From IMG/VR virus record IMGVR_UViG_3300017917_003066: 64,000 nt of DNA; one strand, written 5' to 3'. Source of the DNA: an uncultured virus (IMG/VR IMGVR_UViG_3300017917_003066) (Duplodnaviria; Heunggongvirae; Uroviricota; Caudoviricetes). Shown here in pieces: positions 9,074 through 61,075 of this stretch; position 1 is the first letter of the stretch; each line of letters starts with the position of its first letter. The notes beneath the pieces are model-generated. The model worked only from the letters and a program-made list of their open reading frames with translations. It made no database searches and was not told the DNA's origin. A program made the position numbers and the translations under genes.

Positions 9074-9394
9074 CTAATCAATAGCCATTGATATTTTAAT
9101 TTCTCTAATTGCTGCTTTTAATATTTCTTTATATGGTGATTCAAACTCTGATAACTTAACTGTAATATAATCACCTATATCTTTTCTACTTTTACCTACA
9201 TTATCTTCATTGATACCACAAGAATAATCAATAATAGGTTTAATTCTTTTACAATTAAATAGAACATCATCTTCTAAAAAGTCAATTGAGTTTATATAAA
9301 CATCTATTGCCAATTTATTATGAACCTCAGCAGATTTATTCCACTCATAAAAGTGTTTAATTATAATATTATTATCTGACTTTTTAAGTATCAT
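9074..9394 (-). CDS. hypothetical protein with C-terminal RxxK[LI] tag
   Basis: ends IREIKISMAID. Confidence 0.7.
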   Translation of the reverse strand: MILKKSDNNIIIKHFYEWNKSAEVHNKLAIDVYINSIDFLEDDVLFNCKRIKPIIDYSCGINEDNVGKSRKDIGDYITVKLSEFESPYKEILKAAIREIKISMAID

Positions 9395-9861
9395 ATTTTC
9401 CCTAATATATCATCTATTTTTCTATCACGAGGTTCAATCGTATTAAACCTTTGTCTTAATAAAGTAAGAGCTTCATCTGCCCATTCACCATCACTAAGTT
9501 CCTCACCTTTTCTAGGAACTAAATCATAGTTATCACTTGGTGTAAAATTAGCAATAGTTTGTAAATTCTTAAAACCTTTTTCTTCAGTTAAATAATCAAT
9601 AACATCACTATATAAACTACTAACTCTTGGTCGATAATCGTACCAATCTTCCGGTAATTCCTTTCTTTTCTCTTTATTATCATCTGACATCCATTCATTA
9701 ATATACCATTCGTTATGACTTTTCTCTTGTCTTTTATTTACCTCAGCATAAGCATCTAAAAGAATTTCATTGAATTGTTCTTGAGTATAAAGTTCATCAT
9801 GTGATAATATAATCTGAGGACATTCTTCCCAAGTTGTGTAGCCTACTTCGTAAAGATTCAT
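9391..9861 (-). CDS. hypothetical protein with C-terminal tag
   Basis: ends RDRKIDDILGKI; ATGA overlap. Confidence 0.75.
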   Translation of the reverse strand: MNLYEVGYTTWEECPQIILSHDELYTQEQFNEILLDAYAEVNKRQEKSHNEWYINEWMSDDNKEKRKELPEDWYDYRPRVSSLYSDVIDYLTEEKGFKNLQTIANFTPSDNYDLVPRKGEELSDGEWADEALTLLRQRFNTIEPRDRKIDDILGKI

Positions 9862-10082
9862 ATTCCTAATTGTTTTAATTTCTTTTCACGAGCGATATCT
9901 ATCATTTCAAATCGTTTATGGTAATAAGATCCTTTTTTACCTATATCATTAATAACATTATAAACATGGTCACTAGTTGATATATTATCACCAAGTGCTT
10001 CATAAGTTTTACCTACTGTTAGATTAACAAGGTTATCCATAGCACCATCCATTGGACCATTATTAACACAAACTACTTTCAT
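9858..10082 (-). CDS. MKV.C family protein with C-terminal tag
   Basis: MKVVC...LTVGKTY; ends REKKLKQLGI. Confidence 0.75.
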   Translation of the reverse strand: MKVVCVNNGPMDGAMDNLVNLTVGKTYEALGDNISTSDHVYNVINDIGKKGSYYHKRFEMIDIAREKKLKQLGI

Positions 10083-10297
10083 AATATTTTATCTATTTGT
10101 CTTTTACGCCATTCATCTAATTTGAGGAATGTATTTTTAGAATAATATTCTTTATTACCTTTATCATTAATAATAAAATAATTATAATCATCAATACCTT
10201 TTATACCACAACCAGGTAAGACATCATAAATCTTACTAAATGTTAATTCATATTGTAAGCCTTGTGAACGGTATTTCTTAATACAAACTACTTTCAT
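10079..10297 (-). CDS. MKV.C family protein with C-terminal tag
   Basis: MKVVC...LTFSKIY; ends WRKRQIDKIL. Confidence 0.75.
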   Translation of the reverse strand: MKVVCIKKYRSQGLQYELTFSKIYDVLPGCGIKGIDDYNYFIINDKGNKEYYSKNTFLKLDEWRKRQIDKIL

Positions 10298-10506
10298 TTC
10301 AATATCTTTTTAATAGTATCTTCTCTATTACAAGATTCACATATCAACTTATAACCACCAACAGTTACATCACCTGTAACTATTACACATCTGATTATAA
10401 TATTTACAATAGTAACAAATCGACTAGGTGGTTTAACAAAGTATTTATCTTTTACCAAATCAAACTTAGAATCACAGTCTGGACATATTCTTTCAGTTAA
10501 TCTCAT
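10294..10506 (-). CDS. zinc-finger-like small protein with C-terminal tag
   Basis: CPDC...CESC; ends REDTIKKILK. Confidence 0.7.
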   Translation of the reverse strand: MRLTERICPDCDSKFDLVKDKYFVKPPSRFVTIVNIIIRCVIVTGDVTVGGYKLICESCNREDTIKKILK

Positions 10507-10736
10507 ATACCTAATATTTCAAGTTTATCTAATCGAATAGATTGAACATCTAGTTTGACCTTTCCAGCGTGTAATGCGCCGTATTCAAGTTGTTCAGGTG
10601 TATATTGAGTTTTACGACCATTCTCCCAATAAATAACAATATTATCACCTATCATTTTAGTGACCTTACCCTTTAAGGATAAATTAGGTTGGTCATAATC
10701 TTCCCAATATACTTTATCGCCTAAATTAAAACTCAT
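10503..10736 (-). CDS. small SH3/KOW-like protein with C-terminal tag
   Basis: FNLGDKV...KGKV; ends RLDKLEILGI. Confidence 0.7.
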   Translation of the reverse strand: MSFNLGDKVYWEDYDQPNLSLKGKVTKMIGDNIVIYWENGRKTQYTPEQLEYGALHAGKVKLDVQSIRLDKLEILGI

Positions 10737-10772
10737 ATACCTAAGTTAATATACATTGAAATTTTAATTTCA

Positions 10773-10988
10773 TTATACAATATTTAACTCAACTTCTTTA
10801 ATTTCTAATTGGTCATTTGTGTACACTTCATTCATATCATCAATGTGATAAACTTCAGGACAATGTTTCATAATTGAATCAGCCATATATTTATCCATCA
10901 ACATTGGTAATTCACATACATATTCTCCCATTTCATCTGCGTTGAAGAATAAATCCTTTTCTTTTACTTTTACTACTAAATATTTCAT
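10773..10988 (-). CDS. hypothetical protein
   Basis: 71-aa ORF in operon, ATGA overlap. Confidence 0.7.
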   Translation of the reverse strand: MKYLVVKVKEKDLFFNADEMGEYVCELPMLMDKYMADSIMKHCPEVYHIDDMNEVYTNDQLEIKEVELNIV

Positions 10989-11473
10989 ATTCCTAATAAT
11001 TCTAATGATTCTTTTCTTATTACATATGTTTTGAATCTTTCAGAAGACTCACTATCTCTCATGATTCTATCATATAACTCTTTAGTATCAACTCGATATG
11101 TCCAGTTTGGATGTATAGTTTCTGATATTCTTTGACCATCAACAACCTTTATATTAACCTTAGTAGTTACTTTAATGATAATTGATTTAGGGTTCTTTTT
11201 AGCAAACTGAATAATATCACCTTGTTTTAAGAATGGTGATATAGAGTTTTGACCGGCTTTTAATCCGGTTTGAACCGCTTTAATATTAAAGTAACTATTA
11301 ATATGATATTCAGAACCAATTTCAATCCACTCAGAAAAATAATCTAATAATCTAGATTCTTTTAACTGAGAGAGTTCATTATTCTGTATAGATAAAGCAG
11401 CAACCTGTTTTTGTAATTCTCTGATTGCTTCTTTATTACTATTATACTTACTATCTATTTCAGATATTCTCAT
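10985..11473 (-). CDS. hypothetical protein with C-terminal tag
   Basis: ends RKESLELLGI. Confidence 0.75.
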   Translation of the reverse strand: MRISEIDSKYNSNKEAIRELQKQVAALSIQNNELSQLKESRLLDYFSEWIEIGSEYHINSYFNIKAVQTGLKAGQNSISPFLKQGDIIQFAKKNPKSIIIKVTTKVNIKVVDGQRISETIHPNWTYRVDTKELYDRIMRDSESSERFKTYVIRKESLELLGI

Positions 11474-28271: not shown

Positions 28272-29237
28272 ATGAGTAAAGTTAGAATATTATCAATAGA
28301 TGGTGGTGGATTAAGAGGAATTGTTCCACTACTTATACTTAAAGAAATTGAGAAACAACAAGGTAAAAAAATACATGAACTATTCGATGTTATAGTTGGT
28401 ACATCAACTGGTGGTATAATCGCTTGTGGTTTAACTTGTACTAAAGACGGTGTTAACCCTTGTTTAAATATCGATCAATTAATTGAGCTTTATACAACTA
28501 AAGGTGATACTATATTTCCATATAAAAAGAATATTTTTGGTAAGATTATATCAGGTGTTAACTCTGTTTTTAATCCAAAGTTTTCTCCAAAAGGTTTAAA
28601 TGGTTTATTAGAAAACTATTTTGGTGATATGATGTTATCAAAAACATTAAAACCTATTATTGTAAGCTCTTATGATTTGAAAAACAATGAAGTTGTTATG
28701 TTCAAAACTAGAACAGCTAAATGGTCTAAAGAAAGATTTGATGCTAGACTAAAAGACGTTTGTAGAGCAACTTCAGCAGCACCTACATACTTACCTTCTT
28801 ATGAAATGACATTTGATGGTAAAGATAGGATATTGGTTGACGGTGGTGTTTATATTAACAATCCAGCCATGGCGGCAGTTGCTGATATTTTGAAATCTAG
28901 AAAAGGTATTAAGTTAGAAGATATAGAATGTTTATCTTTAGGTACTGGTTCTTATTCAGAAAGTCTTGGTATTAAAACTGAAAGTTGGGGTATTGCTAAT
29001 TGGGCACAACCTATAACAACTGTAATGATGCAGGCTTCTTCTAAAGCGGTTGTTTATGAGTGTGAACAAATATTAGAAAAGTATTTAAGAATTCAACTAG
29101 AGATTGATGATGAAAAGAAAAGTGATATGTCTGATTCAAGACCTGAGACAACTCAGTATATTATTGATAAAGTAAATACTGAAATTATAGGAAACAAGAA
29201 AACTATGAGTGGTATTAAATCATTCTTTAAGAATTAA
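28272..29237 (+). CDS. patatin-like phospholipase
   Basis: DGGGLRG, GTSTG, SAAPTY, DGG, SLGTG motifs. Confidence 0.92.
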   Translation: MSKVRILSIDGGGLRGIVPLLILKEIEKQQGKKIHELFDVIVGTSTGGIIACGLTCTKDGVNPCLNIDQLIELYTTKGDTIFPYKKNIFGKIISGVNSVFNPKFSPKGLNGLLENYFGDMMLSKTLKPIIVSSYDLKNNEVVMFKTRTAKWSKERFDARLKDVCRATSAAPTYLPSYEMTFDGKDRILVDGGVYINNPAMAAVADILKSRKGIKLEDIECLSLGTGSYSESLGIKTESWGIANWAQPITTVMMQASSKAVVYECEQILEKYLRIQLEIDDEKKSDMSDSRPETTQYIIDKVNTEIIGNKKTMSGIKSFFKN

Positions 29238-29446
29238 ATTCCTAACTTTTTTAGTTTCAATTCTCTTTCATAAACATTTTTACAAGATTTACATTTGGTG
29301 GGTTTTCCAGTAAACCCACCATTTTCTAATTCTAAGGAACATTCACAATCTTGACAGACCTCACCAACACTAATAGAGAACATTAGGTCAACATCTATAA
29401 ATGGTTTTTGTTTTTTCTTAAATAAAGATTTTATATAGGAAATCAT
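29234..29446 (-). CDS. zinc-finger-like small protein with C-terminal tag
   Basis: CQDC...CKSC; ends RELKLKKLGI. Confidence 0.7.
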   Translation of the reverse strand: MISYIKSLFKKKQKPFIDVDLMFSISVGEVCQDCECSLELENGGFTGKPTKCKSCKNVYERELKLKKLGI

Positions 29447-29817
29447 TCTTCTAGTAAAAAATTTAATTTAATATTTCTTAAAAAAACCTTTACCTTTTCT
29501 TTATTAACTCTTATAGCACCACCTGGAACAACATCGTGATGTGGTAGAGCGTATGTTAAACCACCACCATGTTCCTTGTAAGTATACCAAAAGTAATCAG
29601 CCTCAGGTTCTTTAATTAAAACATCTAATATATCAGATAGTGATTCACCTTCAACATAATTTCTCATATTAGTAAATCTATCTTCTCTTAAATATGGACC
29701 GACTTTAGGGTTATTACTTTTTAATAACCACTCAGTAAAGTCCTCACTAAAACAATCTCTTAGTTCTTTTAATTCTTCTATAATCATAATAACTTGTTTA
29801 ATTGTTGTTCTCTCCAA
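29443..29817 (-). CDS. hypothetical protein with C-terminal tag
   Basis: ends RNIKLNFLLEE. Confidence 0.7.
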   Translation of the reverse strand: MERTTIKQVIMIIEELKELRDCFSEDFTEWLLKSNNPKVGPYLREDRFTNMRNYVEGESLSDILDVLIKEPEADYFWYTYKEHGGGLTYALPHHDVVPGGAIRVNKEKVKVFLRNIKLNFLLEE

Positions 29818-30053
29818 ACATCTAAAGTAACAAAGTAGTGAGCTGGGTAAGTTATCGATTCTTCTTCGTTGTCTTTTACTAAAGTATAAAAACTAGCCTT
29901 ACCAAGTGAGAATATACCATCAGGTTCAGTCTCATATATTTGACCTATGGTTATTGGTAATCTTTTATGTCTAGGCTTACCATTTGAATCTTTGCCAAGT
30001 TCGATGTTATTAATACAAACTAGTTTCGTAATATTGCAATATATAATTACCAT
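29784..30053 (-). CDS. MKV.C-like protein with C-terminal tag
   Basis: KLVCINN...ITIGQIYE; ends WREQQLNKLL. Confidence 0.7.
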   Translation of the reverse strand: MVIIYCNITKLVCINNIELGKDSNGKPRHKRLPITIGQIYETEPDGIFSLGKASFYTLVKDNEEESITYPAHYFVTLDVWREQQLNKLL

Positions 30054-30400
30054 TTTCCTTCTTTTAATAGTTGTTCTCTTGGTTCTAACTCTTCACCATA
30101 ATGTACCCAATGATTCCAATTCTTTCTTAGCTTATCAGAATCATAGTGTAGAGCCGAACCACCATGTCTTGTAACATAAGACATAATAGACTCCGACCAA
30201 ATAGAAAAATGATTGTATTCATTTTCTCCACAACCACAACCGGTTGAACGACCATTATTAAATTCCCAAACAAGTGGTCTTAAATTACAGTTAGGACAAA
30301 TTAACCACTTATCAACATCTTTAGGAATTTGATAAGCTGATATGCATTTATATTTTCCAGAAATAATATCTAGTTTAATATCTCTTTCTAATTGTATCAC
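30047..30400 (-). CDS. zinc-binding hypothetical protein with tag-like N-terminus
   Basis: ERDIKLDII near start; CPNC, CGCG. Confidence 0.75.
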   Translation of the reverse strand: MIQLERDIKLDIISGKYKCISAYQIPKDVDKWLICPNCNLRPLVWEFNNGRSTGCGCGENEYNHFSIWSESIMSYVTRHGGSALHYDSDKLRKNWNHWVHYGEELEPREQLLKEGKW

Positions 30401-30723
30401 TTGTCTAGTATATTTTCTATATAAATTTCACGAATATAGTCTTTAAATCTTTCTTGACCAACTGCTTTAATAAATTCTTCAATTGGTACTTCTTCTAATA
30501 TTTCATCGATTGTGAATTTACCAATCAATTCTGTACCATAATGACTAACACAAGTATCTATATCAATATGTTCTAATAAATCAACATGTGACATGTTTTC
30601 AGTAATCTGTTTAGCCGAAAGTTGATTAACAACGTCTCTTTCATCACATTCAATTTTTATATTAAACTCACGATAACTTCCTGGTGAAACATTTACATCT
30701 GATGCTGATAGTTCTAATTTCAT
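30397..30723 (-). CDS. hypothetical protein with C-terminal tag
   Basis: ends REIYIENILDK. Confidence 0.7.
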   Translation of the reverse strand: MKLELSASDVNVSPGSYREFNIKIECDERDVVNQLSAKQITENMSHVDLLEHIDIDTCVSHYGTELIGKFTIDEILEEVPIEEFIKAVGQERFKDYIREIYIENILDK

Positions 30724-30989
30724 ATTCCTAAATTATTTAGCTGACTTTCTCTCCATTCATCTAAGCTAATAAATGCTTCCATTGGATAAATATAATCAGA
30801 ATTAATATCATCACCCCAAACCATTACTCTTGGGTCAGTTGGTTCTTTCATTTCGTCACCCTCATTCAGTGGTATAGGCAATACAGACACATTATACTTC
30901 TTACCTATTGTAAGATTACAGGATTCACTACCAACAACGGGTAAGAGTTTAATACAAATCATCTCCATAAATTCACCACTTATTACCAC
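30720..30989 (-). CDS. MKV.C-like protein with C-terminal tag (start may be ATG 30968)
   Basis: MICIK...LTIGKKYNV; ends WRESQLNNLGI. Confidence 0.7.
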   Translation of the reverse strand: MVISGEFMEMICIKLLPVVGSESCNLTIGKKYNVSVLPIPLNEGDEMKEPTDPRVMVWGDDINSDYIYPMEAFISLDEWRESQLNNLGI

Positions 30990-31291
30990 TTTAAAACCTT
31001 ATTAATCTTGTAGTCTCTACAAGCCATCTTTAAACCATTATTAACTTTAGTATGATGAACTTCCGCATCATGGTTTCCGCTCATATTTTCATAATGTAAT
31101 ATTTCCCAATTCAGAATAAACTTTTCCCAAGAGCCATATTCACATCTTAATTTAGGACTAATATCTGTAGTTGCAATCTCTATCATACCTTTACCAATAT
31201 GAGGCATATCGATTAAGTGCATTTTATAAATATGACCATTAATAAATCCCAGTGAGTTTAAACCAATGAATTTTGCTTTTATTTTAAACAT
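30983..31291 (-). CDS. hypothetical protein with C-terminal tag
   Basis: ends RDYKINKVLKW. Confidence 0.7.
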   Translation of the reverse strand: MFKIKAKFIGLNSLGFINGHIYKMHLIDMPHIGKGMIEIATTDISPKLRCEYGSWEKFILNWEILHYENMSGNHDAEVHHTKVNNGLKMACRDYKINKVLKW

Positions 31292-39602: not shown

Positions 39603-39610
39603 ATTTTAAA

Positions 39611-42556: not shown

Positions 42557-42958
42557 TAGTATATTTCTAGCAATATTATACTCTTCTTCTGTAAAGCCTA
42601 ACCAACCTCTACACTTAACAACATTAGGCAAACCAAATGAGTTTATATCTCTAACATTATCATCTAAGATAATAAACTTATCAATTGTGTTATTGAATAT
42701 CCAGTGTTCTATTTCAGCGCCTCTACCTTCATCCGGAAAGATTGGAGTGAAATCATAGATGCTAGTAATTATACCTTTTTCAGTGAATATTTTCTGTAGT
42801 TGATGTCTTGTATGATTGGTTCGCCAAGTTGAAGTAACAACCGGTCTTAAATTAAATTCAGCACATAGCTTATTATACAAATCAATGGATGATTTATTCC
42901 ACTGGTTTCTATTAACTGTGTTAAAAACACCATCTATGTCTGTAAATGCTATGTTCAT
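42548..42958 (-). CDS. HAD-domain phosphatase (Swiss Army Knife RNA-repair type)
   Basis: FTDIDGV, VVTSTWR, RGAEIEHW, FIILDD. Confidence 0.8.
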   Translation of the reverse strand: MNIAFTDIDGVFNTVNRNQWNKSSIDLYNKLCAEFNLRPVVTSTWRTNHTRHQLQKIFTEKGIITSIYDFTPIFPDEGRGAEIEHWIFNNTIDKFIILDDNVRDINSFGLPNVVKCRGWLGFTEEEYNIARNILLK

Positions 42959-43362
42959 TTAAATAAGTCGTTTAATATAAAATCTCTTTGTATAGATTTT
43001 GGAAATAATTTTATTATATCTTTTTTACTTTCTAGTAAGAATGAACCGTGTTTATAAAATTCATAAATCTCTTCAACACCATTTTTTGCTATATTACCTT
43101 CTAAGTAAATTGTTTTAATTTGTCCTTTATCAGTATCAACCCATATGTTGATACCTTCAGTAAAAATAAGTTTATAAAACTGTCGCCACTTTGGATGAAC
43201 TTTTTTAACAGTTACAACTGTTCTTTTTCCGTTTACTACTTTAGTTTCATTTGTATACACATCCGGAACCATTCTATATAGCTCACTATAATTATCATAG
43301 TGCTTATGATGTGGCTCACATCTTTTAAAGCCCATGTTTAATAGTTTCTTATGTGTATTCAT
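42955..43362 (-). CDS. hypothetical protein with C-terminal tag
   Basis: ends RDFILNDLFK; TATATTTG at 43368-43375. Confidence 0.7.
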   Translation of the reverse strand: MNTHKKLLNMGFKRCEPHHKHYDNYSELYRMVPDVYTNETKVVNGKRTVVTVKKVHPKWRQFYKLIFTEGINIWVDTDKGQIKTIYLEGNIAKNGVEEIYEFYKHGSFLLESKKDIIKLFPKSIQRDFILNDLFK

Positions 43363-44719: not shown

Positions 44720-45382
44720 TTAAATTCCTAAATTATCTAATTTTCTTCTACGAATTTCTCTTTTTATTAATCCTTGTAATGTTTCTTTCTGAGGTTCTTT
44801 AAATCCGGAAAAAGTTATTTCACCTCCTTCATATTGCTTAATATACTTTTTCAAGTCTTCCGCATAAAAGTAGTTTACAAAAGAAACATCATAGTTAAAG
44901 TCTTTAAGTTCTTCAATTAATTCTCTTGTTTGGAACTCTAATTTAGAATACTTTAGAATTAACAAATCAACATCAATATAAATAATCTTATCATCATATT
45001 TATCAATTAAATCTGAGTAGAATAAATTCATATATTCAACCACATAAGGTGACTTTATTTTCATATAAAGAGAGTTACAATGTATCTTCCACTTTTCATA
45101 CTCATCCTTATTTACCCACTTTAAATCTTTTCTGTTTTTAAGAAACCATTTTACTCTTTCAATATCTTCTTTCCACTTTTCATCCAGCATATTAGATTCA
45201 AATAAGCCAATCAGTAAAGATGTGTAAAGTACATTAAAATCAATTTGAACTACATCCTCGTATAGATTTCCTCTACTAAAATCTCCTAAATGATGTATTT
45301 TCTTATCAGTTATAAGAAAATTATGAAACTCAAGACCTTCTAATTTTTTAAGTCTTTCTATATAATCTTGTCTTAATTTCAT
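44720..45382 (-). CDS. miniature/degenerate family-B DNA polymerase palm-like protein with C-terminal tag
   Basis: DFNVLYTS (motif A), KIHCNSLY (motif B), YIDVD (motif C); ends RRRKLDNLGI. Confidence 0.6.
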   Translation of the reverse strand: MKLRQDYIERLKKLEGLEFHNFLITDKKIHHLGDFSRGNLYEDVVQIDFNVLYTSLLIGLFESNMLDEKWKEDIERVKWFLKNRKDLKWVNKDEYEKWKIHCNSLYMKIKSPYVVEYMNLFYSDLIDKYDDKIIYIDVDLLILKYSKLEFQTRELIEELKDFNYDVSFVNYFYAEDLKKYIKQYEGGEITFSGFKEPQKETLQGLIKREIRRRKLDNLGI

Positions 45383-45816
45383 AAACCTAATATTTCCAAC
45401 TTTTCGTTTCTTAATTCTGATACAAAACCTTGTGGATAAAACTGAACAATAAAACGATAACCTTGATTTGTCATATAATCAACTTTATCATTTTCAAATT
45501 TTGTTTCACCAGAATTGCTACCTGGTCTTGGTAATTTATAACTTGATGAAAACATTTTAATGAACTTATCTTCTAACCTTTTACGACATTTATCTTTAGC
45601 ATTATCAAGCAGCATTGCTTCGTAGATTGAATTAGAAAACCCATCTTCAAAATTAAATGTAACTTTATAACAAAATTCACTTTCTGGATAACCAGTATAA
45701 TACTTATTCATTCTGAATAAATCTACCGATTCTACTTTGCGAGAGTAACCATCAACTTCAATTGATTCAATTATCTCTTTCCATTTATCTGTTAGTATTT
45801 TAGCAAAGCCGTCCAT
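45379..45816 (-). CDS. hypothetical protein with C-terminal tag
   Basis: ends RNEKLEILGL. Confidence 0.75.
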   Translation of the reverse strand: MDGFAKILTDKWKEIIESIEVDGYSRKVESVDLFRMNKYYTGYPESEFCYKVTFNFEDGFSNSIYEAMLLDNAKDKCRKRLEDKFIKMFSSSYKLPRPGSNSGETKFENDKVDYMTNQGYRFIVQFYPQGFVSELRNEKLEILGL

Positions 45817-46136
45817 TATAGTCCTAAGTCTTTTAATATTTTTTCTCTTGCCTCAGCAACAGTCGGTACTTTAACTCTTTCTGACTCACCTTTTGTACCA
45901 TCTGACAATGTTGGTGCATATTTTTTTCTTCTATTAAACTCACTCAACCTTGAGAATAGTTTCTTTTCTTTTATAGGGATAAAGCCTTTTATGACTTTAA
46001 ATTGTAAACTACTTAGTTCTATAATCTCAGAGGGAACATACTTATTATCAACATACCTAGCGAGTAGATAGAGTCTGTATTGACCTCCATCCTCAACAAT
46101 ATAATCACCGCTATTTGAGTTTACCCAATAATTCAT
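45816..46136 (-). CDS. hypothetical protein with C-terminal tag
   Basis: likely start MNYWV at 46136 after TATCTTTG at 46142-46149; ends REKILKDLGL. Confidence 0.7.
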   Translation of the reverse strand: MNYWVNSNSGDYIVEDGGQYRLYLLARYVDNKYVPSEIIELSSLQFKVIKGFIPIKEKKLFSRLSEFNRRKKYAPTLSDGTKGESERVKVPTVAEAREKILKDLGL

Positions 46137-46161
46137 AATTACAAAGATAATAAATAAAAAT

Positions 46162-46189
46162 AAAAAACCCACCTTATGGTGGGTTTTTT
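46162..46189. terminator. intrinsic terminator
   Basis: A6-CCCACC-ttat-GGTGGG-T6. Confidence 0.8.
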
Positions 46190-48182: not shown

Positions 48183-48524
48183 TCATTTCCAAAAAATCTG
48201 AATTAGTAATATACCACCAGCCAAACACAAACTAACTATCGTTTTTGTTGTGAACGGTTCACTCATTATAAAGTGAGAAAGTAAGGCAAAAACAATAGCA
48301 CCAACTGCAAATCCTATTAGTCGTCCGGGCCAAACTTGACCATCAAAAGCTAATGCACAATACTTAGTAAAATAAATTAAAAGTATAGAAATTGGAACAC
48401 CCATAAAAGACATTAATATAGGATGATTTTTGGCCCAAGTCCAAAAGAATTGACTTTGTAGTTGAAAGTAAGCTAAAGACTGACCAATAGTTATTATAAG
48501 TAATGATATTATTAAATTTCTCAT
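48183..48524 (-). CDS. small multi-pass membrane protein (DMT-like)
   Basis: four hydrophobic segments in 113 aa. Confidence 0.65.
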   Translation of the reverse strand: MRNLIISLLIITIGQSLAYFQLQSQFFWTWAKNHPILMSFMGVPISILLIYFTKYCALAFDGQVWPGRLIGFAVGAIVFALLSHFIMSEPFTTKTIVSLCLAGGILLIQIFWK

Positions 48525-49045
48525 AATCCTAAATCTTCTAACTTAAATCTTCTTTCAATTGCCACCTCATCAACTAGATAATACCCTTCTTTGTGCATAT
48601 TATAACCACTCATAAAGATATCGTGATTTAAATGATGATTCATGTTATCTACTAAAGATTTACATTCTTCAAATAAAGTTTGTTCAGTATCACCATCTTG
48701 AAATGGTCTAAAAATAAAGTATGTAATTGGTCTGTCACCATTTTCATAATTGACATCTCCAACCTCTAATTCAATTTTCCATTTATTACCATGTTCCCAA
48801 TATCTTCTATCAATAGATCTAGCTAAAAAGAATAATCCTTCTTGCTTGTAAATACAAGATTCTTCAACATGTAGAAATATTAATAATCCATTCCACTTAT
48901 TAAGTTCTTCAAATGTTTTATATAAATTTGTACTTTGTACATTTATACCAGGAATAGCTTGTATAGCCATTAATAAGTTTTTATAATCTTCTTTTAGATT
49001 ATATTTGTTAATGTCTTCGGTTTCTTTTCTTAATATTAGTGCCAT
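48521..49045 (-). CDS. hypothetical protein with C-terminal tag
   Basis: ends RRFKLEDLGL. Confidence 0.75.
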   Translation of the reverse strand: MALILRKETEDINKYNLKEDYKNLLMAIQAIPGINVQSTNLYKTFEELNKWNGLLIFLHVEESCIYKQEGLFFLARSIDRRYWEHGNKWKIELEVGDVNYENGDRPITYFIFRPFQDGDTEQTLFEECKSLVDNMNHHLNHDIFMSGYNMHKEGYYLVDEVAIERRFKLEDLGL

Positions 49046-49239
49046 AGTTCTTCTATTTTTTTATTTCTTTCTTCGTCAATTGGATAGAATAGTTCTTTAG
49101 TATACCAGAAGTTTCTCAATTCATCATCAACTATTCTAAACCCAATATTATCAATATCAGTTACCACATAAGACTTATCAATTGTTAAACCTTTTAATTT
49201 ACCAACTGAGTCATTATCACTTTTACATCTAACTATCAT
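49036..49239 (-). CDS. MKV.C-like protein with C-terminal tag
   Basis: VRC...LTIDKSYVV; ends RNKKIEELWH. Confidence 0.7.
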   Translation of the reverse strand: MIVRCKSDNDSVGKLKGLTIDKSYVVTDIDNIGFRIVDDELRNFWYTKELFYPIDEERNKKIEELWH

Positions 49240-49580
49240 ACCCCAATTTTATTTAACTTAACCTCTCTTAGAAATGGTTTGATAATCTTATATGTCAATT
49301 CAATCATTGAGTTTTCAGATGTGTATATTTGTTGAACGTTACCACTCCTTTCAACATGAATATTATAGTTAGTGATATCAACTTCTTTATTATCAGACCA
49401 CATATTAACTAAGCTATAGTGTTTCTCAATTCTTATTTGTGTTGAAATATCATCTTGTTTATAATAAAGTAAATAGTGATTATCTTGTGATATAATCATC
49501 AAATCATCTATCAATAATCTTGAACTGAAGTTCAATCCATCATAGATAAGTTGAATGTCTTTCCAAAGTTTTTCTAACAT
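49236..49580 (-). CDS. hypothetical protein with C-terminal tag
   Basis: ends REVKLNKIGV. Confidence 0.7.
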   Translation of the reverse strand: MLEKLWKDIQLIYDGLNFSSRLLIDDLMIISQDNHYLLYYKQDDISTQIRIEKHYSLVNMWSDNKEVDITNYNIHVERSGNVQQIYTSENSMIELTYKIIKPFLREVKLNKIGV

Positions 49581-49975
49581 AATATTGTTTCAATTTTTTT
49601 ATCTCTCTCAAATGATTTAGTTACATCAGTGAATAACCAACTTTTATTTTCAACCTTTCCAGGATCTAAGTTCTTTTCAATTAGACCTTTTGATATAATA
49701 CTTTCTGTTTTATATTCACTGACATCACCATTATTGTAAATAACTCTTTCAAGATAAGTGTATGCTTCTGATGTCGGTGATGATTTGAAAAAACGAACAA
49801 CCACTACATCACCTTTAGATAATTCAATAGTATCAGTTTCATCCCAATCACTAATATCCCTCATATCACCCCATCTTTTATCTCTGCAATTTGACCATGA
49901 GAAATCTGAATTTACCAAAAAGAAATGTTCTTTCTGTAGTTTATCATGTATCTGACCTGGTATATAATTCATCAT
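49574..49975 (-). CDS. hypothetical protein with C-terminal tag
   Basis: ends RDKKIETILC. Confidence 0.7.
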   Translation of the reverse strand: MMNYIPGQIHDKLQKEHFFLVNSDFSWSNCRDKRWGDMRDISDWDETDTIELSKGDVVVVRFFKSSPTSEAYTYLERVIYNNGDVSEYKTESIISKGLIEKNLDPGKVENKSWLFTDVTKSFERDKKIETILC

Positions 49976-50256
49976 AACAATATAGATTTAATTTTATCTT
50001 CTCTTTGTTCCATAAGTATTTGTCTTTCAGTTTTACTGAAATGATAAGAGGCATACTCATTTTCATATCCACCGTCTGTTATCAAAACAACAAGTAAGAT
50101 ATTAACCGTCATCCCAGGTCTCTTATAACATCTAACTACTTGATAAGGTTTGTTAGGTGTTATAGACTTCCAACTTTTTTTAGTTGTAAAGACTTCAGTA
50201 CCTGGTTCAAAATCAGGATAATGTCTATCTTTAGCATATATTCCATCCCAACTCAT
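49972..50256 (-). CDS. SH3-like protein with C-terminal tag
   Basis: ITPNKPYQV; ends REDKIKSILL. Confidence 0.7.
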   Translation of the reverse strand: MSWDGIYAKDRHYPDFEPGTEVFTTKKSWKSITPNKPYQVVRCYKRPGMTVNILLVVLITDGGYENEYASYHFSKTERQILMEQREDKIKSILL

Positions 50257-50543
50257 AATATCATTCTTAGTTTATATTCTCTAATAATCGATAGTATATT
50301 TTGTCTATCAATATCAGTGAAACAATTTTGATTAATAAACTCATTTGATATTAGATGTTTCTCAGTTCTTTTAATAACTTCAACATCATCTGGTTTAACC
50401 ATGTCTTTGATTCTTCTTAAATATTCATAAGCGTCTATATTACGAACATCTACTAAATACTCTGAAATAGTTCTACATAGATTACCAACTCTTAGGTATA
50501 ATCTATCTTCTGGATATTTTATGTAGTTGTAATCTTTAAGCAT
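50253..50543 (-). CDS. hypothetical protein with C-terminal tag
   Basis: ends REYKLRMIL. Confidence 0.7.
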   Translation of the reverse strand: MLKDYNYIKYPEDRLYLRVGNLCRTISEYLVDVRNIDAYEYLRRIKDMVKPDDVEVIKRTEKHLISNEFINQNCFTDIDRQNILSIIREYKLRMIL

Positions 50544-51124
50544 TATTTTAGTAATCTATCTAATTGTAAATTTCTTAATTCATCCGTAGTTCTATGAAAC
50601 CACCAAGTTCTCTCATAAGCTTGTTTTAATTGTTTCCAATTTGGCATTGAATCCCAAACACCATAAACTAAAAGATAATCATGCCATATTGGTAGCCGTT
50701 GAGTCTCTGTTTCAAGTTCACCAATATACCTTTCGAAGATTCTTTTAGAACCATCTTTATCACTATACTCATATTCATATTGTGCATTCCACTCCCAAGT
50801 TCTACGATAGTCAACCCACTCAATTTCAAGAGTTTGGTCACACGGTAGTGAGTTTAAATAAAGTCCTAACTTTGGATAAAACAATTCATGATCATGAGGT
50901 ACATTAGATTTATACCTACCATCTAATAGTTTCTCATAAAGAAAGAACTGACCCATTTTTTTAGGTGAGTTAATCTTAAAAAACTCATACTTGTGAAAAT
51001 GTTCATTAAATAATTTCTTATCAACAACAGTAACACCTTGAGGATTTCCCATAGGTGTTAAACCATCATCTTCTAAAATGTAGATTGACTTTGATTTACT
51101 TTTTAATACTTCTTCTTTTGTCAT
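50543..51124 (-). CDS. hypothetical protein with C-terminal tag
   Basis: ends RNLQLDRLLK. Confidence 0.75.
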   Translation of the reverse strand: MTKEEVLKSKSKSIYILEDDGLTPMGNPQGVTVVDKKLFNEHFHKYEFFKINSPKKMGQFFLYEKLLDGRYKSNVPHDHELFYPKLGLYLNSLPCDQTLEIEWVDYRRTWEWNAQYEYEYSDKDGSKRIFERYIGELETETQRLPIWHDYLLVYGVWDSMPNWKQLKQAYERTWWFHRTTDELRNLQLDRLLK

Positions 51125-51756
51125 AGCTTAATATCTTCTAATACTTCATTAAGAAGTTTAAATTTTTTGTAAACTCTGCTATATCTATACTGATCGTCAC
51201 ATTGAACGTAATATTTTTTATCACCAATAGAAACAGTAAGAGTATTAGGGGCTTCTTTTTCTTTGTAGATAAATCTCAATTTATCTTCAACCATTTCTGA
51301 TAGAATTTCTCTAACACGAAGGTGGTAGTATTTAGTGTTACCCTGTAAGGATTCGTATAATTCACCAAGCTCAAATGCTTTCTCATTAGAAAGAAGAAAT
51401 TCTAATTTTTCATTTCTATTATGAATTGTTTTATCGGAATTAAATTTAACTAAATCAGCTGAACGAATTCCCCAAGAATCATATTCAGAATTCTTGCTTA
51501 ATTCTCTTTGATAGATTTTGCCTTCTCGATTGAAATAAACCTTTCTTTTATCTTTTTCAAATTCTTGAACTTCATCGATAATTCTATTAACACAATCAAC
51601 AACAAGTTTTTGTCTAACTGAGTGTCTATCTAAAACTTTTAGATATAGTTTATGAATCGATTCAATAGTCCATACTTTAGGCTCACGTTTGAACTTCATT
51701 TTGAAGAAGTCAGAGTTACCCCAGAATCTTTGATAATTTAAATGATTATATCTCAT
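51121..51756 (-). CDS. hypothetical protein with internal tag-like motif
   Basis: likely start MRYNH at 51756 after TATATTTG at 51762-51769; internal RNEKLEFLL. Confidence 0.75.
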   Translation of the reverse strand: MRYNHLNYQRFWGNSDFFKMKFKREPKVWTIESIHKLYLKVLDRHSVRQKLVVDCVNRIIDEVQEFEKDKRKVYFNREGKIYQRELSKNSEYDSWGIRSADLVKFNSDKTIHNRNEKLEFLLSNEKAFELGELYESLQGNTKYYHLRVREILSEMVEDKLRFIYKEKEAPNTLTVSIGDKKYYVQCDDQYRYSRVYKKFKLLNEVLEDIKL

Positions 51757-51813
51757 ATGTGCAAATATAGTGAAAAAAATTAAAGTTGTGAAAATAAATT
51801 TAATATATAGTTT

Positions 51814-52926
51814 ATGGCGATTAAACACATCATAGACAATGCAGATAATTCTTTAGGAACTCAAAGTATAAGTGGTACAGTTTCTGTTGGTAATTTAACA
51901 ATTACAGACATACAATCAACAACAGGTTTAACAAATTATGTTGTTGTTGATGTTAATGGTAATACTTACTATCAATCTGGGCCTAGTGGATCTGGATCAA
52001 CTGGTACTTCAGGAACTTCAGGCACAGATGGTTCGTCAGGAACAAGTGGAAACGATGGATCTTCTGGAACAAGTGGTGAGTCAGGATCATCAGGAACATC
52101 TGGTGAGTCAGGATCATCAGGAACATCTGGTGAGTCAGGATCATCAGGAACATCTGGTGTAACAGGATCATCAGGAACATCTGGTGTTGATGGTACATTT
52201 ATGGGTTCTTCTGGAACTTCAGGAAACGATGGATCATCAGGAACTTCAGGTAACGATGGATCATCGGGAACATCTGGTATAGGAACTGATGGATCATCGG
52301 GAACTTCTGGTAATTCAGGATCAAGTGGAACCTCAGGTATAGGAACTGACGGATCATCAGGAACTTCTGGTAATAATGGATCTTCTGGTACTAGTGGTGA
52401 TAATGGATCCTCTGGTACTAGTGGTATTTCAGGATCATCCGGAACATCTGGTATAGGAACTGACGGATCATCCGGAACATCTGGTAATTCAGGATCAAGT
52501 GGAACTTCTGGTAATTCAGGATCAAGTGGAACTTCTGGTAATTCAGGATCAAGTGGAACTTCTGGTAATAACGGATCATCCGGAACATCAGGTATTTCAG
52601 GATCAAGTGGAACTTCTGGTAATAACGGATCATCCGGAACATCAGGTATTTCAGGATCATCCGGAACATCGGGGAATTCGGGATCAAGCGGAACAAGTGG
52701 TGCTGATGGATCAGGATCAAGCGGAACATCAGGTACTAGTCCTGTAATGAGTGCTGCATTTTTTGCATATACTTGGGGTCTAGGTGACGGTGGCCCTGCT
52801 TGTATGACAGGTGATGGATTACCTGGAACTTGGCAATTTTCAAGTGATGAAGTTGTTATAACCCCTGAAACTCAGGGTACATATTCTTGCTTTGGATTAA
52901 GAGTTTGTTGTGTACCTAACGCATAA
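51814..52926 (+). CDS. GSSGTSG-repeat low-complexity (fibre-like) protein
   Basis: about two-thirds of 370 aa is (x)GSSGTSG; TAATATATA at 51801-51809. Confidence 0.8.
   Translation: MAIKHIIDNADNSLGTQSISGTVSVGNLTITDIQSTTGLTNYVVVDVNGNTYYQSGPSGSGSTGTSGTSGTDGSSGTSGNDGSSGTSGESGSSGTSGESGSSGTSGESGSSGTSGVTGSSGTSGVDGTFMGSSGTSGNDGSSGTSGNDGSSGTSGIGTDGSSGTSGNSGSSGTSGIGTDGSSGTSGNNGSSGTSGDNGSSGTSGISGSSGTSGIGTDGSSGTSGNSGSSGTSGNSGSSGTSGNSGSSGTSGNNGSSGTSGISGSSGTSGNNGSSGTSGISGSSGTSGNSGSSGTSGADGSGSSGTSGTSPVMSAAFFAYTWGLGDGGPACMTGDGLPGTWQFSSDEVVITPETQGTYSCFGLRVCCVPNA
51994..52740 (+). repeat. in-frame tandem repeat encoding GSSGTSG (mostly 27-nt units)
   Basis: e.g. ggtgagtcaggatcatcaggaacatct repeated; roughly 25 units. 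Confidence 0.9.
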
Positions 52927-52927
52927 T

Positions 52928-52960: not shown

Positions 52961-52961
52961 G

Positions 52962-53077
52962 TACAAGAGGATGGATTCGCACCATCACGATTTAGTTACC
53001 TATCAATCAACCCTTTAATCAGGTCACGTCTACTATTAACACTTCACTAGTAAAATGTTTGTTTCCGCCACTCTTGT
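52962..53077 (-). ncRNA. tRNA-Leu-like RNA with D-loop hairpin insertion and aberrant anticodon arm
   Basis: perfect acceptor ACAAGAG/CTCTTGT; TGGCGGAA...GTAGACG D-arm; T-arm GATGG-TGCGAAT-CCATC; long variable arm. Confidence 0.6.
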
Positions 53078-58306: not shown

Positions 58307-58660
58307 TTAATCATTTATAATTTTATTAATTTTATTATCTCTATCGATATCTTTATTTCTCTTTAAGAATCCTACCCATTCATTCCTAATGTTTTCACTC
58401 TTCAATAGCTCTTTTCTTTTTCTATCACTATGTTTAACAAAAAATAGTAAAAAGTATAAAATATACTTATTTATACCTATGTCTTTGAATGAGTAAAAAT
58501 TTCCATTCTGAAGTGAAAATGTCCAAATTGATTTATCAAAATCTTTTTTAATAGAAACTACACCATTTGAATAGAAATCACTTCTTCCTTCAGAAGACCA
58601 ACTTGATTTTATTATTTGTTTAATAATGAATCTTCTTATATCTTTTAGAGAATTGTCCAT
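58307..58660 (-). CDS. hypothetical protein with C-terminal tag
   Basis: ends RDNKINKIIND. Confidence 0.7.
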   Translation of the reverse strand: MDNSLKDIRRFIIKQIIKSSWSSEGRSDFYSNGVVSIKKDFDKSIWTFSLQNGNFYSFKDIGINKYILYFLLFFVKHSDRKRKELLKSENIRNEWVGFLKRNKDIDRDNKINKIIND

Positions 58661-59647: not shown

Positions 59648-60163
59648 TTATTTTGTATCTATAAATACCATAGTATTGTAATTCTCGTAATGTTTTACGT
59701 TAACAAATCCACTTTTTGTAATAACTTGTTTACAAAAGAAACCAGCGTATTTAAATTTAGGATCTATAAGAACATTGTTGTGGTCTGGTGAGTTTTTCCA
59801 AGCTTCTACAATCTTATCTGCTAACTTATTAAGACTCAAACTATCACTGCTAATAATATTGAATGGTATAAAATTACAAACCTCACCAGCTTTATTAAAA
59901 TTATAATTACCAAAGTTGTTTAATCTATTAAACACATTCTCATATCCTTTTACATCTTGGTTGTGACCAACCATCTTTTCACTTGCTAAATAGGTTGCTT
60001 GGTTTTTTGCGGCTTTGTAACAAACACTATCAAACTCAACTTTGTTCAAACCTAAAGAAAGTCTATACTCATTTACTTTAACAAATACAAGACTATCAAC
60101 TTTTGATTGTGCAAAAACCGAACAAGTCAAGAATAAAAATAATATAGTGAATAGATTTTTCAT
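59648..60163 (-). CDS. CAP/SCP domain secreted protein
   Basis: VNEYR...GL, H, GEV, W.NSPDHNNVL; TATATTTG at 60168-60175. Confidence 0.85.
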   Translation of the reverse strand: MKNLFTILFLFLTCSVFAQSKVDSLVFVKVNEYRLSLGLNKVEFDSVCYKAAKNQATYLASEKMVGHNQDVKGYENVFNRLNNFGNYNFNKAGEVCNFIPFNIISSDSLSLNKLADKIVEAWKNSPDHNNVLIDPKFKYAGFFCKQVITKSGFVNVKHYENYNTMVFIDTK

Positions 60164-60192
60164 ATATCAAATATAGATTATTTTTTTAACTT

Positions 60193-60462
60193 TTACAACT
60201 TTGGTTTGCTTTTTTCTTTTAGTTTTGCGTTGTATATTTCGTGATCAGTCATACCGATATAAGGAGTAATTATTACTTTTTCTTCTTTACCTTTGAATGG
60301 TCTTTCGGTGTATTCCTCGTCAAGTTCTTGATTCTCTACAATAACGGTTTTTTTAACTGTTACGATTGGCTTTACTTTGTTAAGTAAAGTATCTTTAGTT
60401 ACTGTTTGTGTAAAAGCAACTAATGGAAAGAGTAATAATAGTGTAGTGATTAATTTTTTCAT
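60193..60462 (-). CDS. secreted hypothetical protein
   Basis: signal peptide; TATATTTG at 60467-60474. Confidence 0.65.
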   Translation of the reverse strand: MKKLITTLLLLFPLVAFTQTVTKDTLLNKVKPIVTVKKTVIVENQELDEEYTERPFKGKEEKVIITPYIGMTDHEIYNAKLKEKSKPKL

Positions 60463-60485
60463 ATATCAAATATACTAAATATTTT

Positions 60486-60692
60486 TCAATTATCAAAATA
60501 ATCTTCTTCATTATCATCATTTAAAATATCCTCATATATTTCAAGCTCTTCTAGTCTATATAATAGTTTTTCAACTTCAGACATTCTATCAAACTTTTCC
60601 CAATTTCTATTTCTACGAGCATATATAATTTGCTCAGTTGTTAGTTTTTCTAAAATTAAACTAATCTTATTATTGAGAATATCTTTATTCAT
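60486..60692 (-). CDS. hypothetical protein
   Basis: 68-aa ORF. Confidence 0.55.
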   Translation of the reverse strand: MNKDILNNKISLILEKLTTEQIIYARRNRNWEKFDRMSEVEKLLYRLEELEIYEDILNDDNEEDYFDN

Positions 60693-60741
60693 TATTTTTT
60701 TATATATTTAAACTTAAATTCTTAAAATTTATATAAATTAT

Positions 60742-60879
60742 ATGAAGTCATTCATTAAAAGATTTGAAAAGTGGTTTGACCTAAAACTAGGTTGGTTTTT
60801 CATTAACGGTAGAAAGCAAGAACAATGGTCTGAATACCTTAAAGAAAAATATCCTAATGATTACCAAAAATCAAAATAA
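60742..60879 (+). CDS. 45-aa peptide (absent from ORF track)
   Basis: MKSFIKRFEKWFDLKLGWFFINGRK... Confidence 0.45.
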   Translation: MKSFIKRFEKWFDLKLGWFFINGRKQEQWSEYLKEKYPNDYQKSK

Positions 60880-60895
60880 AAAAATATTTAAAATT

Positions 60896-61075
60896 ATGGG
60901 CGATGATGCAATGATGTCAGAAGCGGTAAGTTACCGTTATGAGAACAGGGAGTATTTGTTGAAAACAATTATGAATCAGTTAGGAATGACTGAGGGAGAT
61001 TTAGAAAACGATCCTTCTTGGGTAAGAGCTAAAGTTAGAGAAGCTAATATTGATAAAGTATTAGAAAATAACTAA
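60896..61075 (+). CDS. small protein with C-terminal tag
   Basis: ends REANIDKVLENN. Confidence 0.65.
   Translation: MGDDAMMSEAVSYRYENREYLLKTIMNQLGMTEGDLENDPSWVRAKVREANIDKVLENN

Follow-up and report, generated by a model that had tools for sequence, protein, structure and literature searches.

An Arg-anchored C-terminal motif on about a quarter of the genes in a stretch of uncultured phage DNA, with a possible docking role

Short peptides at protein ends act as addresses in several known systems. The ssrA tag is a portable C-terminal degron for Clp protease and needs a free, non-polar C-terminus, and Escherichia coli SspB has a C-terminal ClpX-binding 'XB' peptide that docks on the ClpX N-domain and so delivers the cargo of its body. 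The capsid-targeting sequence (CTS) of T4, carried by IPI-III and Alt, is N-terminal, is removed by the prohead protease and occurs on late proteins. Encapsulin cargo-loading peptides are C-terminal stretches of ~10 residues behind a flexible linker; they are extended, rich in Gly, Ser and Leu, and bind inside an HK97-fold shell. Clamp-binding C-terminal tails are found on T4 gp43, gp55 and gp33 and, in bacteria, as QL[SD]LF or QLxLxL, while Dot/Icm type IV effectors bear a loosely defined, compositional C-terminal translocation signal in the bacterium. In phage SPO1, the early protein Gp53 is described as an adaptor-like modulator of host ClpCP (PMC6873191). Here we analyze a stretch of 64,000 nucleotides (nt) from an uncultured virus of the Caudoviricetes (IMG/VR IMGVR_UViG_3300017917_003066), referred to as the window, in which many proteins (carriers) end in a common motif, R-[DEN]-x-[KQR]-[LI]-x-x-[LI]-[LG] (the tag).

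The tag is found on about a quarter of the window genes, far above chance. We used a mechanical set of 121 non-overlapping open reading frames (ORFs) of at least 40 amino acids (aa), with mechanically chosen starts, so that denominators are approximate, whereas C-termini are independent of start choice. The loose form of the motif, R...[LI]..[LIV] within the last 14 residues, was detected in 29 of the 121 ORFs, compared with a mean of 1.25 (standard deviation 1.1, maximum 6) in 1000 per-protein shuffles; this enrichment over shuffled C-termini is what an earlier note on this DNA, made from the letters alone, had suggested looking for. The strict form, R..[KQ][LI]..[LI][LG], was found in 17 ORFs against 0.011 expected. 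Anywhere in the 19,745 residues of the window there are 53 loose matches, 29 of them in the last 14 residues. One loose match, a 46-aa ORF at 52910-53050 between a collagen-repeat gene and the transfer RNA gene tRNA-Ser, was dropped by judgement as probably no gene, leaving 28 of 120. These 28, with one degenerate copy on ORF 9074-9394, agree with the ~29 carriers claimed earlier, and all 12 peptides quoted at that time are at the ends of the genes named. The minus strand holds 27 of the 28 carriers, and 20 of the 28 are coupled to a downstream start. The four minus-strand operons in which carriers had been said to concentrate hold 23 of them (6, 7, 3 and 7). The bodies are mostly unrelated, as the earlier note had also held: BLASTP gave E<1e-3 for 1 of 378 body pairs and E<0.05 for 7 of 378, all in one subfamily (ORFs 9858, 10079, 49036, 29784 and 30720, named by their lower coordinate). 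The carriers are as follows, with the degenerate copy and one internal copy at the end.

9391..9861, minus: 156-aa ORF, tag RDRKIDDILGKI at 9391-9429
9858..10082, minus: 74-aa ORF, tag REKKLKQLGI at 9858-9890; LR745206 homologue tagged
10079..10297, minus: 72-aa ORF, tag RKRQIDKIL at 10079-10108
10294..10506, minus: 70-aa ORF, tag REDTIKKILK at 10294-10326
10503..10736, minus: 77-aa ORF, tag RLDKLEILGI at 10503-10535
10985..11473, minus: 162-aa ORF, tag RKESLELLGI at 10985-11017
29234..29446, minus: 70-aa Cys-rich ORF, tag RELKLKKLGI at 29234-29266; final gene of its operon, without a coupled gene downstream
29443..29817, minus: 124-aa ORF, tag RNIKLNFLLEE at 29443-29478
29784..30053, minus: 89-aa ORF, tag REQQLNKLL at 29784-29813
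30397..30723, minus: 108-aa ORF, tag REIYIENILDK at 30397-30432
30720..30989, minus: 89-aa ORF, tag RESQLNNLGI at 30720-30752
30983..31291, minus: 102-aa ORF, tag RDYKINKVLKW at 30983-31018
31299..31841, minus: 180-aa ORF, tag RSVKLKSLIK at 31299-31331
34288..34662, minus: 124-aa ORF, tag RNLVLNEILKES at 34288-34326; ATG with TAnnTTTG 12 nt upstream
36781..37128, minus: 115-aa ORF, tag RDYKINQIL at 36781-36810
42955..43362, minus: 135-aa ORF, tag RDFILNDLFK at 42955-42987
44720..45382, minus: 220-aa ORF, tag RRRKLDNLGI at 44720-44752; at the end of its operon, with a TAA stop and without a coupled gene
45379..45816, minus: 145-aa ORF, tag RNEKLEILGL at 45379-45411
45816..46172, minus: 118-aa ORF, tag REKILKDLGL at 45816-45848
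48521..49045, minus: 174-aa ORF, tag RRFKLEDLGL at 48521-48553
49036..49239, minus: 67-aa ORF, tag RNKKIEELWH at 49036-49068
49236..49580, minus: 114-aa ORF, tag REVKLNKIGV at 49236-49268
49574..49975, minus: 133-aa ORF, tag RDKKIETILC at 49574-49606
49972..50256, minus: 94-aa ORF, tag REDKIKSILL at 49972-50004
50253..50543, minus: 96-aa ORF, tag REYKLRMIL at 50253-50282
50543..51124, minus: 193-aa ORF, tag RNLQLDRLLK at 50543-50575
58307..58660, minus: 117-aa ORF, tag RDNKINKIIND at 58307-58342; no coupled downstream gene
60857..61075, plus: 72-aa ORF, the sole plus-strand carrier, tag REANIDKVLENN at 61037-61075
9074..9394, minus: 106-aa ORF, degenerate copy REIKISMAID (Ala at +7) at 9074-9106; LR745206 homologue ends AIREIKINRINDKKRY
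51121..51828, minus: 235-aa ORF, first gene of the 51.8-48.2 kilobase (kb) operon, internal copy RNEKLEFLL at residues 138-146 (51391-51417), conserved in the orthologue from G001

The window has a guanine-plus-cytosine (GC) content of 28-34% and short, densely packed genes; the contig from which it comes is given as 164,686 bp in the protein database. It encodes tRNA-Ser and tRNA-Met, and its auxiliary genes include, by Pfam, phage tail-collar, collagen-like, RNA ligase, RNase H, TPM/LemA, patatin and others. No match was obtained by Megablast when 12 kb of the window were compared with 50,697 phage records, or by tblastn when a 452-aa protein from its structural region was compared with the phage collection. 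The nearest record was reached through the window RNA ligase, which is 77.6% identical (tblastn) to a gene of LR745206.1, an uncultured phage of 634,780 bp. BLASTP homologues in LR745206 were found for only 34 of the 121 window ORFs, so the window represents a diverged member of the LR745206 clade; LR756502 (642,428 bp) is another relative. In Al-Shayeb et al. 2020 (PMC7162821), the four largest complete genomes (634, 636, 642 and 735 kb) are placed in a 'Mahaphage' clade with predicted Bacteroidetes hosts; neither 'C-terminal' nor 'Clp' occurs in the main text of that paper. Of the 252 LR745206 ORFs with 230 aa or more, 246 were covered by the Pfam scan and five more by that of the tagged set; the last one, the RNA ligase, is known from its tblastn match only. 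The scan recovered a T4-type capsid protein (gp23), a gp20 portal and a T4-type terminase, Bacteroidetes-style CHU_C/SprB/SusC-like genes, many aminoacyl-tRNA synthetases and EF-G. The window belongs to a T4-like 'Mahaphage'-type huge phage of Bacteroidetes with 29% GC.

Tag counts were obtained for LR745206 and for further genomes, with G001 being the closest relative, and are listed below as loose matches per ORF and strict matches.

LR745206: 13 blocks analyzed separately; GC 29% in the one block measured; loose 161/996, against 9.9 ± 3.4; strict 73, against 0.1
G001: 155 kb; GC 31%; loose 42/237, 2.4 expected; strict 26
G003: 436 kb; GC 32%; loose 53/576, 6.1 expected; strict 20
LR756502: two 50-kb blocks; GC 30-31%; loose 27/114 and 11/67; strict 19 and 6
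G004: 425 kb, estimated 97% complete; GC 31%; loose 7/726, 6.1 expected; strict 0
G005: 107 kb; GC 31%; loose 3/235, 1.9 expected; strict 0
LR756508: two 50-kb blocks; GC 39%; loose 1/109 and 1/111; strict 0

Tags thus make up 9-18% of ORFs in the related huge-phage clade, with more than 150 in LR745206, and 23% in the window. The key control is G004, which has a base composition like that of the genomes that bear tags. We note that G004 and G005 (L018, L019) are identical over a 0.86-kb stretch translated around their homologue of the 48521 body, so they probably stand for a single phage and are taken together as a single negative control. The tag is a lineage-specific short linear motif that is absent from related tag-less genomes. 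No description of it was found in the literature searched on huge- and jumbo-phage C-terminal motifs, short linear motifs, early genes and phage ClpC/ClpP.

Within the clade, the tag is conserved at distances where the bodies have diverged considerably. BLASTP homologues in LR745206 were found for 11 of the 28 window carriers, and all 11 are tagged, at body identities of 27-62%. In 21 orthologues of the 48521 family (48-72% identity), R165, L169 and G173 are invariant and K168 is nearly so. In the 50543 family, the tag is kept in 119 of the 120 homologues listed (40-100% identity), and the exception looks truncated. The 48521 family is the only one among 284 tagged proteins with a homologue in the tag-less genomes, the other three matches being chance-pattern enzymes. 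That homologue, in G004/G005, stops just before the tag site; the same body can occur with or without the tag.

A residue profile was pooled from 322 tags. Position 0 is R in 100%, by definition of the pattern; D, E or N occupies +1 in 76% of tags; K is at +3 in 63% and Gln in 6%; +4 is L (55%) or I (45%); N, K, D or E together make up 80% at +5; the residues at +7 are I (48%), L (44%) and V (7%), and those at +8 are mainly L (47%), G (24%) and I (11%). After +7 there are 0-5 residues, most often 2 and often K, N, D or E. Upstream, K occurs at -4 in 30%, and the residue at -3 is one of S, Q, D and E. By our reading, the tag forms an amphipathic helix of 8-12 residues, with Arg(0), [LI](+4), [LI](+7) and [LG](+8) sharing one face of the helical wheel. 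The profile shows no cleavage-site pattern beside the tag. As a mirror control, the first 14 residues match the pattern in 35 of 2110 ORFs, which is about chance, compared with 322 of 2110 at the C-terminus. In most cases the tag is the final element of its protein. A very strict motif gave 129 C-terminal and 25 internal copies in the tag-positive genomes and 0 in 1181 ORFs of the tag-negative ones. One internal copy, at residue 201 (or 225) of a DEAD/ResIII helicase, is kept in LR745206 (L004:20830-22440), G001 (L070:2464-4074) and G003 (L057:7514-9202). The internal copies show that a free C-terminus is not required.

The earlier note had held that its claim would fall if conservation were at the DNA level, as a TTAGG[AT]ATATGA coupling signal. 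This is not what we observed, as the Arg codons are at background and uncoupled tags are common. The Arg codons of the window tags are AGA 22, CGT 5 and CGA 1 (n=28), with a window background of 76%, 13% and 5%, and those of 189 tags from the window and LR745206 are CGT 16, CGC 1, CGA 9, CGG 1, AGA 139 and AGG 23, matching background (p=0.94). The aliphatic positions +4 and +7 are written with a mix of TTA, TTG, CTN, ATT and ATA codons. Uncoupled tags account for 8 of 28 in the window and 85 of 161 in LR745206, where 54 of the 161 are followed by a gap of 30 nt or more, or by no gene on the same strand. The frequency of Gly at +8 is similar in coupled (17/76) and uncoupled (16/85) LR745206 tags. 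Were it the DNA-level coupling signal TTAGGWATATGA, the tag would have little synonymous freedom and would occur only where a downstream start overlaps the stop; instead, its codons vary and it also occurs where stop and start do not overlap. The background mix of Arg codons, the uncoupled tags and the parity of Gly at +8 indicate that the motif is selected as a peptide, and the tag is under purifying selection as amino acids. These data also bear on a translation-level by-product, in which the codons would serve the downstream gene, through an A-rich unstructured initiation region in a Bacteroidetes host that lacks Shine-Dalgarno sites or through stop-start coupling, or in which the nascent peptide would modulate termination or re-initiation. 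Stop-start overlap is indeed enriched in tagged genes, GGA and ATA/TTA are over-used at +7/+8, and the tag codons are A-rich. We regard this explanation as highly improbable, given that all six Arg codons are at background, Leu and Ile codons are mixed at the aliphatic positions, 54 LR745206 tags have such a gap or no same-strand gene downstream, and Gly at +8 is equally frequent in coupled and uncoupled tags. A peptide anchored at the peptidyl-transferase center is also hard to reconcile with a tag-to-stop distance of anything from 0 to 5 residues and with the 25 internal copies, and G004 has the same GC and gene packing without the motif.

Carriers are small, mostly soluble, clade-specific orphans. 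Their median length is 110-115 aa (range 46 to 731 aa, including LR745206), and their isoelectric point is near 6. Transmembrane-like segments were predicted in 3 of 28 window carriers compared with 23 of 75 untagged small ORFs, and in 13 of 161 compared with 79 of 628 in LR745206. A Pfam match at E≤1e-3 was obtained for 1 of 28 window carriers, below the curated cut-off, and for 25 of 85 untagged ORFs (Fisher p=0.004); none of the 28 has a Pfam match above the cut-off, and no curated family in Pfam or PHROGs covers the tag. PHROG matches were weak, of unknown function and short of the tail, in 2 of 28 carriers, and 7 of 161 LR745206 carriers have any Pfam family, mostly those with poor tags. 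Foldseek with the 48521 model found nothing at E≤1e-3, three carriers searched against PDB sequences yielded nothing below E=0.02, and a permissive Pfam search (E≤0.5) of 16 proteins gave nothing credible. The Atlas comparison yielded one weak lead, at 0.91, to a cluster with DNA_pol_B on 10% of its members. The 'PolB-like' and 'SH3-like' bodies described previously therefore find no support from Pfam, PDB sequence search or Foldseek, the Atlas lead to DNA_pol_B being all there is for them. The carriers could also be very diverged paralogues in which only the C-terminal helix is still recognizable, as the weak body similarity in one subfamily of five 67-89-aa proteins and the clustering of carriers in arrays would allow. 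Common descent is nevertheless very improbable in our view, considering the span of lengths, the single body pair at E<1e-3 among 378, the different order of secondary-structure elements in the two modeled bodies and the presence of the tag inside the DEAD/ResIII helicase.

Structural models suggest how the tag may be presented. It is predicted as a helix in both AlphaFold models: in the 48521 family, a confident body is followed by a tail (157-174) with a predicted local distance difference test score (pLDDT) below 50, which holds a helix at 165-171. We read the tag as a docking peptide for one common partner, with a probability of about 0.5. The tag helix would dock in trans on this partner and would act as a shared address for proteins that turn over fast and are probably early, that is, transcribed by the host RNA polymerase. 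The docking or sorting role put forward in the earlier note gains from the orthologue conservation, the helix on a low-confidence tail in one AlphaFold model, the internal copies and the tag-less body, while its 'one hub' and 'second addressing system' are matters that we infer. Another possibility is that there is no common partner and that the helix works in cis or between like molecules, either as a C-terminal cap that stabilizes or solubilizes new small proteins or as a self-association helix. The tag helix of the 50543 family, at pLDDT 77-78, is compatible with packing on its own body, and Gly at +8 followed by a hydrophobic residue resembles, in our reading of the profile, a helix C-cap. 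A generic cap would not be expected to place an invariant Arg centrally on its hydrophobic face or to keep identical spacing on ~300 unrelated bodies, however; moreover, the 48521-family tail is unpacked in its model, the body of this family exists tag-less in G004/G005, and the motif is all-or-none between related clades of equal base composition. We consider this possibility doubtful.

Operon heads (912, pooled from tag-positive genomes) were compared for upstream motifs. TATATTTG lies before 21 of 110 tag-rich heads and 44 of 738 tag-free heads (p=2e-5), and the distance from its first letter to the ATG is exactly 12 nt in 10 of the tag-rich heads. TAATATAT, which is also upstream of gp23, portal, terminase and UvsX, shows the opposite distribution (13/110 compared with 213/738, p=8e-5). 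TATATTTG fits TAnnTTTG, the Bacteroidetes -7 box, which runs from T at -12 to G at -5 relative to the transcription start (PMC6847099). By this resemblance, the spacing of TATATTTG to the ATG points to leaderless transcripts made by the host RNA polymerase. TAnnTTTG is also found 12-13 nt before the start codon of at least eight window genes (minus strand 3065, 34674, 37834, 43375, 54248, 60175 and 60474; plus strand 21286). Another motif with fixed positions (-13 or about -30), TTAATATATA, dominates the other operon heads of the clade, including those of gp23, portal and terminase, and may be the phage's own (late-type) promoter. The 'early-type' label that the carriers had been given is thus supported indirectly, by motif resemblance, in that host-type promoter-like motifs are enriched and TAATATAT is depleted. 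The same comparison bears on whether the tag could be a virion-loading signal, with the helix binding scaffold, capsid interior or portal and the carriers being packed in the head and injected with the DNA. Such a signal would be a C-terminal equivalent of the CTS of T4 or of encapsulin cargo peptides. These are T4-like phages with gp23, a gp20 portal and a T4-type terminase, the tag is short, terminal and on a flexible tail in one model, and diverse small soluble proteins are what would be expected of injected effectors. On the other hand, the scarcity of the gp23/portal/terminase motif TAATATAT in tag-rich operons and their richness in the host-type -7 box point away from co-expression with head genes and count against a late virion-cargo role; more than 150 cargo species per genome would be unprecedented, and the cleavage-site pattern was not seen beside the tag. 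Virion loading is, in our judgement, unlikely.

For the docking reading, a candidate partner is the clade's ClpC-type unfoldase, which lacks an N-domain and has a ClpP-docking VGF loop, together with two ClpP paralogues. LR745206 encodes the following proteostasis genes.

L010:23224-25329: ClpC-type unfoldase
L003:25119-25859 and L004:23556-24221: two ClpP paralogues
L011:23636-25510: DnaK
L011:10828-11910: DnaJ
L011:12777-13475: GrpE
L007:47268-47987: extra J-domain zinc-finger protein

The unfoldase (701 aa) matches AAA, AAA_lid_9, AAA_2 and ClpB_D2-small in Pfam, with VGF at 552-554 and a UVR-like segment near 315-330. It has no N-domain, D1 starting after ~45 acidic residues that form a conserved acidic N-terminal tail. 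The two AAA+ modules, the UVR-containing middle segment and the [ILV]-G-[FL] loop of ClpC are all present, and database relatives are named ClpC at source and carry PF02151. The counterparts of the unfoldase in LR756502 and G003 share 82-83% identity with it, compared with ~50% for typical proteins there, and more than 120 database clusters match the G003 copy at 85-100% identity. The DEAD/ResIII helicase with the internal tag adjoins ClpP_b in G003 and is separated from it by one tagged ORF in LR745206. The distribution of these genes, as identity to the LR745206 protein, is as follows.

ClpC-like unfoldase: LR756502 82%; G003 83%; not found in G001; no AAA_2 match in G004; 52% homologue in LR756508
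ClpP_a: G003 65%; G001 only a 37% match, to the ClpP_b orthologue; G004 distant, 28-31%
ClpP_b: G003 75%; G001 73%; G004 distant, 28-31%
Second J-protein: G003 57%; not found in G001 or G004
DnaK: absent from G003; not found in G001 or G004

PF07724 was not found in the 97%-complete, tag-less G004. Among 79 IMG/VR loci around ClpC homologues, tags occur only at ClpC identities of at least 67%: 40 loci at 67-100% have tags on 59 of 1129 ORFs (33 strict), compared with 3 of 300 (0 strict) at 47-60% and 1 of 764 (0 strict) at 36-40%. In the Clp version of the docking reading, the tag would be either a degron timing the removal of early proteins or an SspB-like tether bringing body-bound cargo to the unfoldase. 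The clade's own ClpC-ClpP1P2 protease appears to be the single most likely partner, as a tentative assignment from gene content; another phage protein or a host machine, taken collectively, is about as likely. A further-reaching idea, that each genome directs degradation with more than 100 fast-evolving 'bait' proteins, each binding a different host or defence protein and tethering it to the phage ClpC-ClpP1P2, strikes us as a long shot.

Several observations weigh against docking on a common partner or against Clp as that partner. The tag helix of the 50543 family (180-192) has no low-confidence linker and may pack on its own body. Coupling is commoner in tagged genes than in untagged ones (window 20/28 vs 18/92; LR745206 76/161 vs 217/835), and A-ending codons are over-used, at +7/+8 only (ATA 68 vs 48 expected; GGA 22 vs 13), so that a weak nucleotide-level overlay exists near the stop. 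Promoter classes are assigned from motif resemblance alone. The locus pattern would fit a pairing of tag and unfoldase and is equally predicted by shared ancestry; the Clp link is a co-occurrence inside one clade and is therefore confounded by that ancestry. In addition, 231 LR745206 proteins share the unfoldase's pattern, present in G003 and absent from G004/G005, and 217 of these are untagged. By Pfam, no Clp gene is among the window ORFs, G001, a 155-kb fragment, has ClpP_b only and no ClpC, and LR756508 has the ClpC homologue (52% identity) and no tags.

Other candidate hubs were set aside. Finding the hub by subtraction failed, as 217 untagged candidates are too many to pick one. DnaK was rejected: it is encoded by LR745206 along with DnaJ and GrpE, but no homologue of it occurs in G003, which bears tags and is 95% complete. 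The sliding clamp was rejected on the motif profile and on replisome proteins without tags: the Pfam-recognizable replication proteins of LR745206 include no tagged DNA polymerase, helicase loader, ligase or RNase H family member. A mimic of the ClpP pocket ligand, with 'LGI' resembling IGF loops, is not favored, as Gly is at +8 in only 24% of tags. The tail of ClpP_b, RYGMIDEIL..., is a loose match that we read as an ordinary ClpP C-terminus arising by chance; the ClpP of tag-less G004 ends similarly.

Other features were observed alongside. In the window, a TPM-domain protein with a Gly/Ser-rich tail adjoins a LemA protein (37851-40222), and the pair is kept in LR745206. A PrkA-DUF444-SpoVR gene trio lies at L011:30112-34920 of LR745206; in bacteria this module is associated with stress or sporulation. 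Two sets of minus-strand neighbors in the window have C-terminal endings of their own: 4393-5253, 5325-5834 and 6070-6909 share …YHYSDG[HT]T…K…, and 6986-7186 and 7221-7400 share …KW[FY]ES[SK]VFKYP…. Both sets look like tandem paralogues, separate from the tag.

The genomes of this clade are among the largest known for phages, and the role of most of their genes is unexplained; a motif of ten residues brings 9-18% of the ORFs together in what would be a single functional class. Even with no partner named, the tag is a practical annotation marker for the clade's 'dark' early gene arrays. If the partner were the phage's own Clp protease, tag and protease would form the first such system to be encoded by a phage, and would offer a portable degradation or docking tag for Bacteroidetes. 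If bait proteins were tethered to the phage Clp, nature would have arrived at an analogue of engineered protein degraders on the scale of a library.

By analogy, the tag would belong with the shared terminal address, docking or degron peptides, with a new sequence. The CTS of T4 is likewise an address peptide of ~10 residues common to unrelated proteins of a T4-type phage; the present motif is C-terminal rather than N-terminal, has no cleavage motif and is found in operons with early-type promoter motifs. Encapsulin cargo peptides share the C-terminal position and the length of about 10 residues, but here the peptide is an Arg-anchored helix. Clamp-binding tails are hydrophobic C-terminal peptides too, common to several proteins that use one ring-shaped hub, and some tags read Q-L-x-x-L-G-I; the clamp consensus is not what we find, as +3 is Lys in 63% and Gln in 6%, and the spacing is off by one residue. 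Dot/Icm signals resemble the tag in uniting about a tenth of the proteome, fast-evolving orphans, by nothing but a C-terminal signal that one machine reads, whereas the tag is a sharply defined helix motif in a phage, with no secretion machine implicated. The ssrA tag is similar as a portable C-terminal peptide on unrelated proteins and differs in its free carboxylate, as 0-5 often polar residues follow +7 here and 25 copies are internal; the helical periodicity and the invariant Arg are further differences. SPO1 Gp53 is a precedent for the Clp version, being a small host-takeover-module protein of a large phage that engages ClpC; it is one protein acting on the host's ClpC, with no shared tag described, while here the unfoldase is phage-encoded and its link to the tag is one that we infer. 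The tail of SspB is alike in being a short, fold-independent peptide at the protein end; it follows a flexible linker, whereas here the helix is on a low-confidence tail in one of the two models and has no low-confidence linker in the other. Its sequence is unrelated, and the present tag is borne by more than 100 bodies per genome, with a ClpC-like candidate unfoldase that has no N-domain and to which it may bind.

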